Of a stretch of 64,000 nt of DNA, positions 27,643 to 56,508 are shown piece after piece. The position numbers and the translations under genes are program-made. The notes beneath the pieces were generated by a model. The model was given only the letters and a program-made list of their open reading frames with translations. It was not told the DNA's origin and did no database searches. The stretch's first letter is position 1; the number at the start of each line of letters is the position of its first letter. The DNA is from Vulcanimicrobiota bacterium. GTDB lineage: Bacteria > Vulcanimicrobiota > Xenobia > Xenobiales > JADMJV01. The DNA lies in NCBI GenBank assembly GCA_050250895.1, contig JBFWNU010000001.1:3108891-3172890 (forward strand). Direction: 5' to 3'.

Positions 27643-28781
27643 CCGCGGAGAGGTTGGTCGGGCAGAATCCCGGCTCCCAGTTCGCTCTCGGCGCCGGGTT
27701 GGGCGATCGTTTGTTGCAATACCCGAGCAAGGGCCTCTTCGCGGGTCAAGGCGGGGTCGCGACGTAGCAGCTTGTCGAAGGCCCGCGAGCCCTGGGGGGC
27801 GGCATACGACGAGCCCGAATGGTGACCAGAGTGGCCGTCGACACAAAGGGGGCGGTCGACTGCGTCGGCGGCCAGCACTGCTCCCGCCATGGGTGAAGCC
27901 AGGGCCGCCGGGCCGTTGGCGTCGTCGGCAGCCCCCACCAGCACGGTCGTCTCGGTGGCCAGGTCGTTGCGGAAGAATTCCGGGGCGACTTCCAGGCCCA
28001 GCCCGGTAACGGTACGGTAGAGCTGTCCCTGATTGCCGGCCGACATCACACGAATGATGCCCAGTTCGTCGGCCCGGGCAGAGGCGGCTTCGAGTCGCTG
28101 ACGAGCAGCCGCCACCGAGGGATCGTGGGCGTGGACCGTGGCGACACGCTCGAGTAAGCCGGCCATCAGATCGTGGTCCGAGACGCCCGCGTCGAGGCCC
28201 AGTTGTTCGCTCAGACGCACCCGGAAAGCCGGCTCGTGGGTGCGGCCCCAGAGAGCCTCGACCACCCGCGACTCGGAGGCCCCCTGCGACTGGTTGATGA
28301 CCAGACGAAAGCCGCGCGCGGTTTGCTCTTGCAGGCCACGAGTGGTGTTGTCCATTCGGCCCGCGAAATGCTCGCGCACATAACCGTCGAGCGAGCCGGG
28401 AAGGCCCTGCTCGAGGGGCTGCATGGACTGGCCGATGCTCACCTGTTGGCGGGCTGAGGTGGGCACCACTTCGCACACCGAGCCCCGGCCGGTCAGCTCT
28501 TTTTCGACCAGTTCGCCGTGGGTAGTACCGCTGTCGGCGTTGGTGAAATCGTCGAACACCACCAGGCCGGCATAGCTCGGCTGGGGGGGAGGGCTGGCGC
28601 AGCAACCGGCCAGGCCGGCCGCGGCGGCGCCTAGCGCGAGCACGACGGCCCAACGCGACCCATGGGCTGAACTGCCCTCGAAGCTCTCGCGCGGACCCGG
28701 AAGGTCGGCCGGCTGGGGGTTAGACTGCTGTTTGGCGTGAGGTGGCACCAGGCGGTGGTCGGTCCGCCCGCGGATGTTCAC
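27639..28781 (-). CDS. S8 subtilisin-like serine protease with internal lipobox-like segment
   Basis: Triad VVFDD / THG / GSSYAAP, oxyanion SAGN; LAGC after a ~55-aa tail. Confidence 0.8.
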   Translation of the reverse strand: MNIRGRTDHRLVPPHAKQQSNPQPADLPGPRESFEGSSAHGSRWAVVLALGAAAAGLAGCCASPPPQPSYAGLVVFDDFTNADSGTTHGELVEKELTGRGSVCEVVPTSARQQVSIGQSMQPLEQGLPGSLDGYVREHFAGRMDNTTRGLQEQTARGFRLVINQSQGASESRVVEALWGRTHEPAFRVRLSEQLGLDAGVSDHDLMAGLLERVATVHAHDPSVAAARQRLEAASARADELGIIRVMSAGNQGQLYRTVTGLGLEVAPEFFRNDLATETTVLVGAADDANGPAALASPMAGAVLAADAVDRPLCVDGHSGHHSGSSYAAPQGSRAFDKLLRRDPALTREEALARVLQQTIAQPGAESELGAGILPDQPLRG

Positions 28782-28809
28782 CCCCTGACTCTAGGCCGGA
28801 ACTCTGAAA

Positions 28810-30123
28810 CTAGTCTGAATCTCGCAGCCGGGCTCGAACGGCCAGCACCACCACCAGCAGCGGCAATCCCAGCAACACCACGAAGCTCATGACGATGTGC
28901 AGGACCTGACCGGCCGAGAGGGCATAGCCAGCTCGGACCACGTTGCGCCAGGCCCAGGCGGCCCCGCCCAGACAGAGCAACAGCGTCCCGATTTGAGCCG
29001 GGGTCGGCCGTTCGACCGAGAAGTGAAACTGACGCACTTTCTGCGTGAGCCTGGTCAAACGACGGCCGGCGGCCTCGAACAGCCAGCCGGGCCGGCGCCA
29101 CTCGAGCAGCCCCAACCCGACCGGGATGGCCGCCCCCAGGGGAGCGGTCAGCTTGACGAAGGTGGTCAAAGCGAAGCTCACCACCGCCAGCGGCAATCCC
29201 AGCAAAGCGGCCGGCTGCTCGAGCACGCTCTGATAGCAATGGATCGCCCAGGAAAGGGCCACCGCCGAAGCCACGAGGCCAAGCCAGCCCAGAGCTCTGG
29301 CGAGCCATCCAGGGGGAGGATTGGCGCTCACCACCACCTGGGCGATGGCCGTGCCCATGGCCAGGGCCCAGACCAGCTCTGAGCCCGACACCAAACCCGC
29401 CAGGGCCAGCCCTACCACCAGGGGGAGCCAGCCGCGTCCCAGTCCGATGAGCAGTCCCGCCACCCCGACCACCAGCAGGCCCTGGGCCAGCACGCGGTTG
29501 AGCGGCCAGGGCCGTCCCGAACCGCCGAAGAAGGCGATGGCCCGGCCTAGCAAATAGGGATCGAGGGTCTCGCCCGAGTGGTCGCAATAGGGTGAGAGCA
29601 CGACCGGGCCGGCTTGCTGGAGTTCGTTTAAAGAGTGGACCTGATCCCAGGCTCCCGCCCCCGCCAGGAAGTTCTCGGTGCCGGGCTCGACCGGAAAGCC
29701 GAAGGCCACCACCTTGCCAAAACCAGGACGTTGAGCCAGATTGAGCACGAGGTCCGCCCCCATGGAATGTCCTAGCAAGTGGCGGGGCGGCTCGAAGCTC
29801 AAGCCTATCTGCTCGAGCTGCTCGACATAGGTGTAGAAATCCTCGCCCGGGGCCAGATGCACGGCCACCCCGCGAAAGCCCCCCTCGGCCATGGCTCGGG
29901 CCGCCGGCAGGGCCGTGTCTCTGCCTTGAAAGACGGAATGGACGCACAGAATCGTCCCCCGAGGCGGACCGGCCGGCTCGAAGACCGTGACCGGAACCCC
30001 GGCCAGGCTGGCCTCGTGCCCGGCCGGACCGGGCCGCAGCAGGCCGGCCAGGCCAAGCAAGATCAGCAGGCCGAACCCAAGATGCTGCCAGCGCATAAAA
30101 AAAAATTGCTCGTCAGTGAACAT
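28810..30123 (-). CDS. Alpha/beta-hydrolase fused to a multi-pass membrane domain
   Basis: GHSMG nucleophile elbow, DH, C-terminal TM helices. Confidence 0.75.
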   Translation of the reverse strand: MFTDEQFFFMRWQHLGFGLLILLGLAGLLRPGPAGHEASLAGVPVTVFEPAGPPRGTILCVHSVFQGRDTALPAARAMAEGGFRGVAVHLAPGEDFYTYVEQLEQIGLSFEPPRHLLGHSMGADLVLNLAQRPGFGKVVAFGFPVEPGTENFLAGAGAWDQVHSLNELQQAGPVVLSPYCDHSGETLDPYLLGRAIAFFGGSGRPWPLNRVLAQGLLVVGVAGLLIGLGRGWLPLVVGLALAGLVSGSELVWALAMGTAIAQVVVSANPPPGWLARALGWLGLVASAVALSWAIHCYQSVLEQPAALLGLPLAVVSFALTTFVKLTAPLGAAIPVGLGLLEWRRPGWLFEAAGRRLTRLTQKVRQFHFSVERPTPAQIGTLLLCLGGAAWAWRNVVRAGYALSAGQVLHIVMSFVVLLGLPLLVVVLAVRARLRDSD

Positions 30124-30164
30124 TTTGCCTGCCTGAGTGGTCTATAATCTGGAGGCCGAGCACG

Positions 30165-30446
30165 ATGACCAACGAGACATATCAGCAGCTTCAACTTCTA
30201 GCTGACCAGGTGGTGGTTGGTCTCGACCAGACCTTCAGAATGCCCGGGCGCCGCAAGCGCCCCCTGGGCCTCGCTGTGCTGGCCCGGCTCGCCGTGGACC
30301 ACGACCTGGCCGCTTCACCTTCGGAACTCGAGCAAGCCCTCGACCGGGCCGCGCGCCGTCGCCATCGTCCCCATACTCGCTTGCTGGCCTGGGTTAGCCG
30401 GGCGGCGGCTGCCCTCTCGTTGTCTTTCTGGGCGCTCAGTCGCTAA
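30165..30446 (+). CDS. Small hypothetical protein
   Basis: TATAAT and GGAGG upstream; ends at the terminator hairpin. Confidence 0.65.
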   Translation: MTNETYQQLQLLADQVVVGLDQTFRMPGRRKRPLGLAVLARLAVDHDLAASPSELEQALDRAARRRHRPHTRLLAWVSRAAAALSLSFWALSR

Positions 30447-30449
30447 TAA

Positions 30450-30480
30450 GGAAAGAGGCACCCAGCTTGGGGTGCCTCTC
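30450..30480 (-). terminator. Intrinsic terminator (possibly bidirectional)
   Basis: 10-bp stem AGAGGCACCC/GGGTGCCTCT, followed on the minus strand by TTCCTT. Confidence 0.75.
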
Positions 30481-31575
30481 GTTCCCGGCCGCCTCCACTC
30501 CAGCACCGGGATCCCGATATCGCTTGCGCGTCGGGCCACGTCCCTCTTTTATCGCAGTAGAGACTCTGCGGTCTACTTCTTTTGGCGTTGTGGACGCCGC
30601 GGCATCTCAGTAGTTCCGCTGCTTGGCCGCCATCCTCTCCTGCACCAAGCTCCCGTGGTCCGCCTTGCCGGCATCGCTGAGTTGCCTCATCGACCTTTCC
30701 CCTCGCGGGTCCGGCAAGTGCGTCGGGCCTCGCTTCGAATGTCCTCAGACGAAGCGCTGCGCATTGCTCAGGTGTGTATGCTACCCCTGTCATCTTTTGG
30801 CTGTCGCCGCGGCCTTTTGACAGTTCCGCTCTCGCCTTTCGACGCTCTCGCGCCCGGTGCGAGCTTCCAACCCTCGAGTTCCGCGCTCGTCGGTGTGATC
30901 GATGCCTCGATCCCGTTTGTCCAGTCGGCTCTGGGCGCTCTCAGGTCTGAACGCAACCCCTGCTCCTATATGCGGCTGAGCAGTTCCGTCCCTGGCCGCC
31001 ATCCACTCCTGCACCAGGATCCCCGTGTTCCGCCTTACCCGGCTGCGCTTCGAGGTTTCGTTGCGCTCTTTCTCCTCGCGGTTCCGACTGTTGGCTTTGG
31101 GGCCTCGTCCCGACACCTGATCGGGACTTCGTACACTCTTAGGGTGGGTGTTCCCCTGTTCTCTTTCGGCGCTTAGCTTCGCCACGGCGTTCGAACAGTT
31201 CCGCTGCCTTTGGGTTAACCCGTCAGGCTGCATCTGGTCACCGATACATCTCGACTGCCGGTCGAGTCGGGCGTTCTAGGTCTGAACGCAACCCCGCTCA
31301 GCATTTGACGTCGCGGAACGTCACGGCGTCTGAGCGATCCGTTGCCTGGCTTTCGCACCAAGCTCACCAACACACTAACCTCGGCGCAGCTCAAAGTTAC
31401 CTTTGCGCGTCTTTATCCTCGCGGCTCCGAGAGAGATGTTGGTCTTGCCTCGCATGTCCACCCGAGGCGGTGGAGGCACCTGGTCTGTGCCCTGCCCTGA
31501 CATTTGCTCTTTCCGAGCGGGTTGCCAGCCCCTCCGAGTCTCACGCTCCTCGGGGCGGCTCCGTGACCGGAACAT
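30450..31575 (-). ncRNA. Candidate ~1.1-kb modular structured ncRNA (about 3.4 diverged units)
   Basis: Bounded by a consensus promoter and a terminator; motifs recur 340-370 nt apart with compensatory stem changes; no credible ORF. Confidence 0.75.
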
Positions 31576-31580
31576 TAATT

Positions 31581-31608
31581 ATTATACCCACGATGACGTT
31601 CCTGTCAA
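31581..31608 (-). promoter_or_regulatory. Consensus sigma70 promoter
   Basis: TTGACA (31608-31603), 16-nt spacer, TATAAT (31586-31581). Confidence 0.9.
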
Positions 31609-31905
31609 ACCCGAAAGGAATTTCGCCTCGGGTCTTGGCCGCCTGGCAGCCCCTCGGGAGAGGGGGGCTGCCACTGCCCGCCGTGGCGCCTGAGCGGGGC
31701 TGGACGCGGACGTGGATTTTAACGCGGACGCCGTCTTCTGCACTTGAACGTGTGCGCCTGCTGGATCTCGAATCCGTCGTGCCAAGCTGCCGAATCGCGG
31801 CCACCCGCCGGGCACACCAGCCTGGCGCGACCCGCCAACTCCCCAGCAAGCCGAACCGACCCGCGCCCGACCTCGCCGGGCCTCGGGGCGAACGCTTGCT
31901 CGAGG

Positions 31906-31989
31906 TTGTGCGCCGCACAGTCCGGTTTAGGCAGTGTACGGCGCAAGTGTGCGCCGCCCATGACGATTTGCCTGGTGTACGGCGCACAA
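31906..31989. repeat. REP-like inverted-repeat cluster
   Basis: TTGTGCGCCG...CGGCGCACAA outer 10-bp inverted repeat; two TGTGCGCCGC and two GTGTACGGCGCA copies. Confidence 0.6.
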
Positions 31990-32115
31990 CCCTGGCCGCG
32001 GAACGCCTGCCGCCGCAGCCAGGCCCGCCGCGCCGACTCGCCAAGCCAGGCCGACCCGCGCCCGACCACCCCACGCCCCGCGCGACCCTCTCCGCCGGAT
32101 CTCCGTGTTCATCCC

Positions 32116-32571
32116 TCGAGCGCCCACTGGCGAGCGACGCCAACTGCACTTCGACAGTGCACCCCGACGGGTATCTCGCCGGTTCCAGCCCCGTCGCGCA
32201 TCGATGAGCGATACGCCCCTCCACCCAAATCCTCAAGCCGTGCCAATCAAAGAGGCCGCCGCCCAGCAACCCATACCTCTGCGTCTCGGCGGACTCGGCG
32301 GTTTTCACCACGAGAGGGCACCTCGCAGCGGCGCTCACGACGCCCCGCGGTTCTCACGATCGAGCGCCCACTGGCGAGCGACGCCAACTGCACTTCGACA
32401 GTGCACCCCGACGGGTATCTCGCCGGTTCCAGCCCCGTCGCGCATCGATGAGCGATACGCCCCTCCGCCCAAATCCTCAAGCCGTGCCAATCAAAGAGGC
32501 CGCCGCGCACCGCGCACCCCTACAACCTCTGCGTCTCGGTGACCTCGGCGGTTTCAACCACGAGCGGGCAC
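32116..32571. repeat. Tandem duplication (147-bp near-identical core, 244-bp period), each copy followed by a CCTCTGCGTCTCGG element
   Basis: 32116-32262 matches 32360-32506 with one mismatch seen; tails at 32275-32321 and 32525-32571. Confidence 0.9.
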
Positions 32572-32582
32572 GTCTCCCTACG

Positions 32583-33302
32583 CTAGGCGAATAGTCGTCC
32601 GACGTACATGTCCATCTGGCGATGCCACCAGGGCCAGTCATGGGCTACTTCGGGGCCCCACAGGTCAAAGTTGTGCTCGATGCCGCTGGCGGCCAGGCGG
32701 TTCGAGAACTCGCGGGTCCAGTGGATGCGTTCCCACGGACCCTGACCGCAGAGGACGTGAATCTGGCACCCGGCCAGGCGGGCGGGATCGTAGTGGCGCA
32801 GGTAGTCGACCGGATTGTGGGCGTAGCAGGTGTCGTCGTAGTAACCGTCCAGGCAGGAAGTGATGTCGTAGACGCCGCTCATGCAGATCCCGATCTTGAA
32901 CAAGTCGGGATGGCGCAGCAGGCTGTTGGCGGCGTGATAGGCGCCGAAGCTGGCCCCGGCTACGGCGATGGGCAATTGCCCCTGGCAGTCGTGATAGATG
33001 GCTGGAACAACTTCGTCGGCCAGGTAGCGATCATAGAGCGCCTGGCGGCGAATGCGTTCGGCCGGGGGGACCGAGAAGTTCGAAAGGCTCTCGGAGTTGA
33101 TGCTGTTGACGCTAAAAAGCTTGACCCGTCCGGCCTCTACATGGTGGGCCAGGGCCCCCACCATGCCCATGCGCTCGTGCTCTTCGAAGTCTGAGCTGGC
33201 CGTGGGGATGAGTAGGAGAGGGGTGCCGAAATGGCCGTAGATGGACATCGGCATCGGTCGTCCGAGGACCTGGCTGTGTTGGGCAAACTTATGAATACGC
33301 AC
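32583..33302 (-). CDS. Putative esterase (alpha/beta hydrolase)
   Basis: YGHFGTP, GASFG, AHDWPWW. Confidence 0.85.
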   Translation of the reverse strand: MRIHKFAQHSQVLGRPMPMSIYGHFGTPLLLIPTASSDFEEHERMGMVGALAHHVEAGRVKLFSVNSINSESLSNFSVPPAERIRRQALYDRYLADEVVPAIYHDCQGQLPIAVAGASFGAYHAANSLLRHPDLFKIGICMSGVYDITSCLDGYYDDTCYAHNPVDYLRHYDPARLAGCQIHVLCGQGPWERIHWTREFSNRLAASGIEHNFDLWGPEVAHDWPWWHRQMDMYVGRLFA

Positions 33303-33335
33303 CGGGCGCGATTCTCGTCGGGGCGGAGCGTTCCT

Positions 33336-34193
33336 CTAATTGGCTACCAGTTCCCAGCCCTCTGACGAGGTGCCTCCGGCCGACTCGACCCGGTTGCGGC
33401 CACCCTGCTTGGCGCGGTAGAGGGCCTTATCGGCAGCCTGAATCAGGTTGACGAAATTGTCTGACCCGACCACGTCCGTTCCCGCTACGCCCAGGCTCAT
33501 GGTCACCATCAGGCTGCCCCAGATGGTATCGATGGGTCGTGAGCAAAGCTCGCTGCGGATGCGCTCGGCCACCTGGACAGCGAAGGAACTCGAGGCCCCT
33601 GGCAGCACCACCATCATTTCTTCACCGCCATATCGGCCAGGCGAGTCGATGGCCCTGATCGAGATGGCCAGCCGGCGGGCCACCTCTTGCAGCACCGCGT
33701 CACCGCAGGGGTGACCGTGATTGTCGTTGATCCTCTTGAAGTGATCGACATCGCACAGGATGACCGACAGCGAAGTGCGTTGGCGGCGGCTGCGTTCGAG
33801 CTCTTCTTCGAGGATCTCGAAAATGGCGCCCCGGTTGCGGAGCCCGGTCAAGGGGTCGGTGGTGGCTCGCTCGTAGAGTTCGCGGTTGGCTTCTTCGAGT
33901 TGCTCTTTCTGGGCCCTGGACATCAGCAGTCCGCCCGCAAAGGCCAGGGCTTGGCCGGCGGCGGTCAGCAGCAAGCCCATCGGGCCGAGGGTGACGGCGC
34001 CAGCGACGCAGCCGGCCACCATTCCGCCAACGGCCAACAATTTGCCCACCGAGGGCCCGAGAGCGCGCCCACCCGAGAGCTTGACTCCGTCGCTGGGCAG
34101 GGCCGGACCCCCAGGTTGCTCGGTCTTTGGCGTGGCGCGGAAGCGTAGCCCGCTAAGAAAGCTCTTGCCGGGCTCGGGACCTTGAACCTTCAT
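33336..34193 (-). CDS. Membrane-anchored diguanylate cyclase
   Basis: DPLTGLRNR, DVDHFKRINDNHGH, RxxD I-site, RYGGEEM, ADKALYRAK. Confidence 0.93.
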   Translation of the reverse strand: MKVQGPEPGKSFLSGLRFRATPKTEQPGGPALPSDGVKLSGGRALGPSVGKLLAVGGMVAGCVAGAVTLGPMGLLLTAAGQALAFAGGLLMSRAQKEQLEEANRELYERATTDPLTGLRNRGAIFEILEEELERSRRQRTSLSVILCDVDHFKRINDNHGHPCGDAVLQEVARRLAISIRAIDSPGRYGGEEMMVVLPGASSSFAVQVAERIRSELCSRPIDTIWGSLMVTMSLGVAGTDVVGSDNFVNLIQAADKALYRAKQGGRNRVESAGGTSSEGWELVAN

Positions 34194-56434: not shown

Positions 56435-56508
56435 GGTGGCGGGGGGGAGAATCGAACTCCCGACCAAGGGCTTATGAGTCCCCTGCTCTGCCGCTGAGCT
56501 ACCCCGCC
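56434..56508 (-). tRNA. tRNA-Met(CAT), probably elongator
   Basis: 75-nt cloverleaf GGCGGGGTAGCTCAG...CTCATAA...GTTCGATT...CCA; G1-C72 pair argues against initiator, Ile2 not excluded. Confidence 0.93.

Follow-up and report, generated by a model that had tools for sequence, protein, structure and literature searches.

A ~1.13-kb RNA of tandem structured modules from Xenobia: a new RNA family and a candidate class of multivalent RNA arrays

Positions 30444-31574 on the minus strand of a 64,000-nt stretch of Vulcanimicrobiota DNA (GenBank assembly GCA_050250895.1, contig JBFWNU010000001.1, positions 3,108,891 to 3,172,890 of the forward strand; this whole stretch is referred to below as the window) form a gene of their own, which encodes an abundant, highly structured non-coding RNA of ~1.13 kb. 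The locus almost certainly belongs to a real, new, modular family of structured RNAs. A preliminary description of this DNA had proposed an undescribed modular structured non-coding RNA with covarying stems; the lack of a match in Rfam, the covariation, the confined RNA contigs and the lack of a conserved frame bear that proposal out. We further propose, at a probability of roughly 0.55, that this locus provides the first described example of a new RNA class, in which highly expressed tandem arrays, reaching at least 13 copies of a ~200-nt unit and ~4 kb or more, are encoded at several loci per genome and act as multivalent RNA machines.

Gene boundaries, paralogs and non-coding character

The region 29800-32400 contains a single promoter-like site, the minus-strand TTGACA-16-TATAAT already recognized in the preliminary description as perfect, which matches the consensus at 12 of 12 positions (31608..31581), against an average of 0.3 sites in shuffled sequences. 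The terminator described earlier is likewise present, although its stem has 11 pairs (30480..30453) rather than 10. Promoter and terminator bracket ~1.13 kb of the minus strand, and transcription would start near 31574.

31581..31608, minus strand: sigma-70-type promoter (-35 TTGACA 31608-31603, 16-nt spacer, -10 TATAAT 31586-31581)
31500..31574, minus strand: 5' leader, ~75 nt, starting UCC(A/G)GUCACGGAG(C/U)CGCCCCG, with a GC-rich hairpin at ~31559-31526
30444..30480, minus strand: intrinsic terminator, an 11-bp GC-rich stem (30480-30453) followed by a U-rich tail

The host assembly (9.5 Mb, 17 contigs) holds six loci of 1.11-1.19 kb that can be aligned end to end (BLAST, MAFFT), each with -35/-10 boxes at the same place, the same 5' start and its own hairpin and T-run. 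The start of the leader is kept in 6/6 paralogs and across family f1 (hidden Markov model (HMM) positions 38-58), and the leader block was also found alone in relatives (BLAST, query 27-82). Furthermore, a profile HMM run on retrieved loci delimited 22 non-redundant full-length homologs of 1.07-2.0 kb, with TTGACA-like -35/-10 boxes at the aligned ends of 18 and a hairpin with a T-run in 17-18. The six paralogs resemble one another only over the RNA and, in four copies, over a further ~130 nt upstream, with no relation between their flanks; the genes that lie downstream vary in both family and orientation across the six.

These boundaries bear on whether the element is a DNA-level repeat (satellite or mobile element) or a cis leader of the downstream gene, with incidental transcription. 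The element is indeed multicopy in the genome, and 330 nt beyond the terminator the same strand carries a 437-aa open reading frame (ORF; 28810-30123, G+C at third codon positions 0.80, no Pfam family). However, the separate promoter and terminator of every copy, together with the differing downstream genes and flanks, argue against such a role; no transposase or terminal repeats were seen that would mark the locus as a mobile element, and the module signature had 0 matches in viral contigs. Because compensatory changes keep the RNA pairs, G-U pairs included, selection acts on the RNA, and we regard a DNA-level or leader function as very improbable.

A protein-coding or small-peptide gene is more improbable still. 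ORFs of 59-147 aa are open on the transcript strand, as expected of GC-rich sequence (~62% G+C), and no Pfam family was found for 30790-31233 (minus strand) or the other tested ORFs overlapping the RNA. Across the six paralogs the longest ORFs lie at different places and the frame is not kept, mismatches lack 3-base periodicity, and 117 of the 142 pairwise indels have lengths that would shift the frame. Similarly, the 286 distinct units that we delimited in the family, 175-300 nt each, are spread evenly modulo 3 (101/83/102). The earlier statement that the region has no credible ORF thus agrees with both the Pfam scans and the paralog comparison.

We compared the locus with Rfam 15 (4227 models, including 6S, RNase P, tmRNA, SRP, OLE, GOLLD, ROOL, HEARO, raiA, riboswitches and ribozymes). 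At gathering thresholds, nothing was found at the RNA locus in a search of the whole window, whose sole Rfam match was a tRNA gene (56437-56508, minus strand, 65.3 bits). Even at E<=10, the region 30300-31800 gave no match to a family, the best score being 20 bits against a gathering score of 80, and six arrays from other genomes and contigs gave 0 matches at E<=0.1. The RNA had not been recognized as rRNA, tmRNA, RNase P, 6S or SRP RNA in the first description, which is consistent with these searches. RNase P RNA lies elsewhere in the genome (C1:1125467-1125845, 305 bits), as does a sub-threshold match to 6S RNA (C1:76298-76466, minus strand), which is full-length (30.7 bits against a gathering score of 46.4, E 7e-4) and could be this lineage's divergent form of 6S RNA. 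Full-text searches of the literature brought up no account of the tandem-module RNA; a candidate list in a supplement could hold the motif.

Module architecture and covariation

The repeat is a ~140-nt module, present in the window RNA as five to six diverged head-to-tail copies that lie 139-341 nt apart. A tandem modular repeat had been described from the outset, with a unit of ~350 nt; the tandem arrangement stands, whereas the unit is the ~140-nt module, and the repeat length across the family is 175-300 nt. All four recurring motif types of that description are present where they had been placed, and correspond to five repeat families (D1-D5) on the minus strand:

30694-30714, 31067-31087 and 31410-31430, minus strand: family D3, motif (i), spaced 373 and 343 nt
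30494-30515, 30633-30654 and 31002-31023, minus strand: families D2 and D5, motif (ii)
30594-30620, 30804-30830 and 31179-31205, minus strand: family D1, motif (iii)
30943-30960 and 31278-31295: family D4, motif (iv), the two identical over 18 nt; a third copy, with 78% identity, lies at 30770-30787

Motif (i) is a 3-4-bp hairpin with a GNRA tetraloop, CCC[GCGA]GGG, which reads CCCA[GCAA]UGGG or UCCG[GUGA]CGGA in homologs. Within a module, the order is stem iii, GGGGUA, H1 (with a CAnACCnnAG loop), H2/3 and a long arm ending in a three-way junction with a GNRA-capped hairpin. H7, a hairpin with a purine-rich loop, usually lies 3' of the module, and follows three modules in the window RNA. We searched this RNA, with filters off, using a covariance model of the module (R1; 151 positions, 30 pairs); E-values below are from a 99-kb search and from a search within the locus.

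31365..31499, minus strand: module 1, diverged; R1 30.0 bits, E 9e-6 (99-kb), 1.2e-7 (locus)
31182..31297, minus strand: module 1b, probable; opens with the GGGGUUGCGUUCAGACCU hairpin (motif iv); R1 5.5 bits, E 0.098 (locus)
31019..31158, minus strand: module 2; R1 26.0 bits, E 8e-5 (99-kb), 1.1e-6 (locus); unit-3 HMM E 6e-17
30991..31018, minus strand: H7 copy a, CCUGG-UGCAGGAGUGGAUGGCGG-CCAGG, purine-rich loop; repeats D2 and D5
30871..30962, minus strand: module 3, truncated; R1 25.5 bits, E 1e-4 (99-kb), 1.5e-6 (locus)
30787..30828, minus strand: stem iii before module 4, CGGAA followed by CUGUCA...UGACAG; repeat D1
30650..30789, minus strand: module 4, canonical and best conserved; R1 133.1 bits, E 1e-30 (99-kb), 1.7e-32 (locus)
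30622..30649, minus strand: H7 copy b, CUUGG-UGCAGGAGAGGAUGGCGG-CCAAG
30511..30581, minus strand: module 5, a weakly matching degenerate remnant; R1 12.5 bits, E 0.15 (99-kb), 0.002 (locus)
30484..30510, minus strand: H7 copy c, CCCGG-UGCUGGAGUGGAGGCGG-CCGGG; repeat D2

In module 4, H1 is GCAU/AUGC with the loop ACACACCUGAGCA, H2/3 is CGCUUCG/CGAAGCG, and the arm (Pa, CCCG/CGGG; Pb; Pc) encloses the GNRA hairpin CCC[GCGA]GGG and a GCAA-capped hairpin; the 3' CAG of the preceding stem iii is also the start of the CAGGGG signature. A stem iii of the sequence CUGUUC/GAACAG stands before module 2. Module 3 retains H1 and part of H2/3, with a shortened three-way-junction arm, and module 1b is tentative because its R1 match is weak, despite the exact 18-nt H1 repeat. 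The 343- and 373-nt spacings of motif (i) reflect the retention of the GNRA hairpin in modules 1, 2 and 4 only.

The covarying stems noted in the single locus were confirmed on homologs in two alignments. The first, a structure-blind MAFFT alignment, covered the best conserved part in 18 sequences; L014, L029, L033 and L045, whose unit-3 HMM matches were partial or weaker, were omitted here and taken back in for the second. Compensatory changes were observed in H1 (GCAU/AUGC to GCGU/ACGC and GCUU/AAGC), H3 (CGUUUCG/CGAAACG to CGCUUCG/CGAAGCG), Pa (CCCG/CGGG to CCCA/UGGG) and the closing stem of H7 (GCCUGG/CCAGGC to GCUUGG/CCAAGC, GUUUGG/CCAAAC and GUCUGG/CCAGAC). The H7 helix covaries at pairs 180-231 and 181-230, with CG and UA closing pairs in 9 vs 8 and 14 vs 3 sequences. 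Over a 40-pair structure, 95.1% of positions were paired, against 90.0% after shuffling, with double changes in 13 pairs, and the covariation score was 0.186 (0.090 shuffled; 0.02-0.09 in slid controls). For four of the five measures, no shuffle out of 500 attained the observed value; further pair types, the fifth measure, did not exceed the shuffles, 244 of 500 of which attained it.

The second alignment, of 84 modules (80 distinct) from families f1, f2 and f5, was fitted to R1 itself. In it, 92.7% of cells pair, against 76.2% shuffled (0/500), both sides change in 30/30 pairs, G-U pairs are frequent, and the covariation score reaches 0.395, against 0.160 shuffled and 0.03-0.07 with partners slid. 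The module comprises eight covarying helices in this alignment, and its most conserved element, found in every module of every lineage (84 instances), is CAGGGGUAGC plus H1 with its CAnACCnnAG loop. Stem iii could be anchored in 72 of the 286 units, where its variable positions 4-7 pair in 74-79%, against 43-64% shuffled.

Distribution, expression and genomic surroundings

BLAST detected matches in 10 of 15 other genomes of the window's family, and none in 25 genomes of three other families. R1 extended this range, and within a 151-genome sample of the phylum its matches were limited to three Xenobia families:

Family f1: 13/15 genomes
Family f2: 5/5 genomes
Family f5 (same class): 1/1 genome
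Family f3 (same order, genomes of 1.9-4.7 Mb): 0/19 genomes
The other 17 families together (including f3, 0/19, and f15, 0/71): 0/130 genomes

A scan of species genomes with an exact, f1-specific pattern returned 15 loci, eight of them titled as Vulcanimicrobiota or Candidatus Xenobia metagenome-assembled genomes and three as 'bacterium'. Another of the 15, titled Pseudomonadales (L039), proved a chance pattern match with no HMM match. Contigs titled Selenomonadaceae (L047, L049) and Burkholderiales (L044) carry genuine copies; these labels are probably wrong, both genomes being placed in the window's own family and genus.

This distribution also bears on a possible CsrB/RsmZ-type sponge, in which GGA-containing H7 loops (UGCAGGAGnGGAUGG) would titrate CsrA dimers. 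Each H7 hairpin loop of the window RNA, in three copies, carries two GGA motifs (as AGGAG and GGAUG), and CsrA is encoded in the genome. However, CsrA and the RNA do not co-occur: we found CsrA in only 4/15 genomes of f1, 1/5 of f2 and 0/1 of f5, where the RNA is present in 13, 5 and 1, respectively, and in 67 of the 71 f15 genomes, all of which are without the RNA. Moreover, the H7 loop reads AGGUGGGAAGG in paralogs C-F and UGAGGUGGAG in other lineages, and the elaborate conserved module is unlike known Csr sponges. We therefore rejected the CsrA sponge on phyletic distribution, and consider it highly unlikely.

Genomic arrays contain 3-5 modules, with 3-4 modules 150-240 nt apart in genus g2 and five modules at a period of ~255 nt in family f2. 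A scan of metagenomes returned at least 120 contigs, of which 80 were analyzed. All 80 had HMM module matches on a single strand each and none on the opposite strand; this, together with the frequent G-U pairs, fixes the transcribed strand. With the sequence-only HMM, we counted 1 to 8 modules per contig, single modules being on short contigs. The covariance model revealed longer arrays, each on one strand, with at least 10 modules over 3.0 kb (L140, 2974 nt) and at least 13 over 4.1 kb (L135, 4106 nt). The modules of these two span almost the entire contig; the contigs may be cut short, and there may be family members of 3-4 kb or more.

The environmental contig L119 illustrates the repeat at its most regular, with eight units, six of which could be delimited singly and are near-identical at 224-228 nt. 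Each runs from stem iii (CUG...CAG) through GGGGUA, H1, H2/3, the three-way-junction arm and H7 to two small hairpins; the arm hairpins are GUGA- and UUCG-capped, and H7 is GCCUGG-UGAGGnUGGAG-CCAGGC.

We then examined expression in public sequence data. Twenty runs from seven studies (wastewater, sludge) hold about one fifth of the sequence words of the locus, and eight of these are registered as RNA. We compared three of the RNA runs with one DNA run over 28500-33500, using contigs, in which depth is coarse and strand and exact ends are unreadable; RNA libraries can also contain DNA. RNA run X3 yielded a 988-nt contig, at depth 888, that matches 30471-31456 with ~95% identity, and contigs of depth 1411 and 3907 that cover the conserved core only (paralogs or relatives), whereas the flanks have depths of 0-21 within 1.5 kb on either side, with 81 in the last bin (33343-33500). 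In RNA run X6, pieces of depth 10-115 lie over 30493-31560, with flanks near 0. The DNA run X1 showed no peak over the RNA (~3-8), and elsewhere mostly 0-13, with one bin at 48. These contrasts with the flanks and with the DNA run indicate a discrete, very abundant transcript of a close relative, and the metatranscriptome contigs are confined between promoter and terminator, in line with the transcription foreseen in the preliminary description.

The environmental contigs are consistent with this picture. Sixty-seven of the 80 are no longer than 2 kb, 42 have their first module 40-85 nt (median 61) from the start of the contig, and 23 of the 80 also end within 160 nt after the last module; in genomic loci, 73-99 nt separate the end of the -10 box from the first module. 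From these distances, the contigs appear to start near the transcription start, without the promoter, like assembled transcripts.

We surveyed the neighborhood of the RNA with Pfam scans at the six loci of this genome and of 77 neighboring ORFs (28 loci plus the window). No protein family recurs beside the RNA in this set except GNAT, with five members. Two of these (L081, L087) lie ~1 kb downstream on the opposite strand and represent one syntenic locus; the other three would be orthologous ORFs in congeneric genomes. The same scans found no nuclease or toxin gene linked to the arrays. GGDEF diguanylate cyclase genes lie ~2 kb or less from two of the six paralogs (window 33336-34193 and L101:8394-9443, both minus strand).

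Upstream of the -35 box, the four paralogs C-F share a block, TTGTGAAC..ACAC..TGGGGATAACCCGGTGGACAAAC, which the window copy (A) and paralog B lack:

C1:1926400-1926530, C1:114700-114830, C2:139270-139400 and C2:144270-144400: upstream blocks of paralogs C-F

Genus g2 has an upstream block of its own (GATGTTACAAAAAAGTGTT..ACACTATTGACA), and arrays with upstream blocks were seen in L083, L084, L092, L093 and L094. Such conserved blocks could serve as UP elements or be bound by a common regulator. Two of the paralogs, E and F, share 95% identity and are separated by 5 kb (C2:132000-150500, L102), with other short repeats between and beside them; genes for an S1/P1 nuclease and a WD40 protein are also nearby, as is a weak transposase-like ORF. 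In another genome (G013:C57; L021/L030/L046), two family members stand back to back on opposite strands, their 5' ends ~40 nt apart, as a divergent pair with one promoter region in common.

Possible mode of action and significance

As a tentative mechanism, each module would fold on its own, and the array would act in trans as a multivalent platform, a decoy or scaffold binding several copies of one protein or RNA partner. The contact surfaces would be the invariant GGGGUA-H1 region and the purine-rich H7 loops, and binding capacity would be set by how many modules each RNA has and how many genes encode it. Modules must fold and act largely alone, because arrays range from 3-5 to at least 13 modules with units that are sometimes near-identical, and a platform is favored because valency is the usual reason for stringing together identical binding elements. 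Action in trans is suggested by the Pfam scans of neighbors, in which no partner was encoded beside the RNA. Hfq is encoded in the genome, and Ro60/TROVE was not found there.

Alternatively, the array could be a precursor, cut at module boundaries into active unit RNAs of ~140-250 nt, like tRNA clusters, CRISPR arrays or ToxI. A polycistronic precursor would be compatible with units that are tandem, variable in number and at times near-identical, and the conserved stem iii with the single-stranded CGGAA flanks the units and could mark a cleavage site. Against this, the 988-nt RNA-library contig spans several modules at even depth, and the 23 environmental contigs described above extend from near the transcription start to a point shortly beyond the last module; this evidence is weak, because assembly joins overlapping fragments anyway. 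The absence of a nuclease or toxin gene linked to the arrays also argues against processing, and overall we judge a precursor unlikely.

Equally unlikely, in our estimate, is a single RNA-only architecture, in which the modules would pack through GNRA-receptor and loop-loop contacts into one pseudo-symmetric particle. Homo-oligomeric assemblies have been reported for ROOL, GOLLD and OLE RNAs, of which this would be an intramolecular version. GNRA-capped hairpins in the three-way junctions, further GNRA and UUCG loops, expansion segments at fixed sites, the extreme conservation of one module (module 4) and the lack of an evident protein partner in cis would all suit such a particle. However, arrays of 3-5 to at least 13 modules, with units of 175-300 nt, are hard to reconcile with one closed fold, and no long-range covariation between modules was found, although it was not systematically sought.

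Several observations weigh against the reading of a multivalent array. Numerous GNRA tetraloops, together with expansion sites at fixed positions, are features typically found where an RNA adopts a global tertiary fold. Module 4 with H7 scores 130-150 bits, against 12-48 for the other modules in this genome and family; this dominance is not predicted by an array of equivalent sites, and could point to a single specialized active center. The expression data consist of contigs, which cannot show that the RNA stays intact. The R1-fitted alignment is biased towards structure, pushing its pair counts upward, but the covariation conclusion is safe because the effect is large and agrees with the alignment made by MAFFT alone. 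Finally, the folding energy of module 4 with H7 beats shuffled sequences only modestly (z = -1.62; 12 of 200 shuffles fold as well), so that the case for structure rests on covariation and not on thermodynamics; the minimum-free-energy fold of module 4 recovers H3, the arm and H7.

Among known systems, CsrB/RsmY/RsmZ and CrcZ are likewise abundant trans-acting non-coding RNAs with their own promoter and terminator, a repeated binding element, paralogs and variable repeat number, but their repeat is a ~10-20-nt GGA hairpin or A-rich stretch, whereas here it is a ~140-nt covarying module of eight helices. ToxI resembles the locus in its promoter, tandem RNA repeats, intrinsic terminator and variable repeat number; its repeats, of ~34-45 nt, are followed by a toxin gene, unlike the 175-300-nt units here. 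We rejected a type III antitoxin array of this kind, since the units are about five times too long and no downstream gene is conserved at the six loci or among the neighboring ORFs scanned in relatives. NORAD and other eukaryotic repeat long non-coding RNAs are long RNAs built of diverged units of a few hundred nucleotides that act as multivalent decoys; they belong to another domain of life without sequence relation, and offer an analogy only.

The OLE, GOLLD, ROOL, HEARO and raiA RNAs were found by comparative genomics, and their functions are unknown or only recently emerging. They are comparably large (0.2-0.8 kb or more), with many covarying helices and GNRA loops, but are single-copy folds that are not known to contain internal tandem repeats, whereas contigs of the present family hold 1 to at least 13 modules and reach ~4 kb or more. 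No counterpart of a complex folded module strung head to tail in variable number is known among the large bacterial RNAs, and Xenobia is not known to have a cultured member. The accounts of OLE (PMC9723947) and raiA (PMC10861870) present large ornate bacterial non-coding RNAs.

Large intricate bacterial RNAs of unknown function are rare, and OLE, GOLLD, ROOL and raiA each opened structural and functional work. The design described here is not seen among these RNAs; it combines a complex module in tandem with an evolving copy number and several genes per genome, and it offers a target for covariation-guided modeling, cryo-electron microscopy and a search for partners. The R1 covariance model provides a way to annotate this RNA in metagenomes and metatranscriptomes, where such contigs now go unexplained. 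If our reading is correct, such RNAs could form a large RNA-only architecture, or titrate and cluster a global cellular factor, in the large-genome uncultured Xenobia, and the class would be common in environmental RNA assemblies. Given its apparently very high expression in wastewater and other environmental RNA data, the RNA may be among the most abundant transcripts of organisms otherwise known only through their protein genes.

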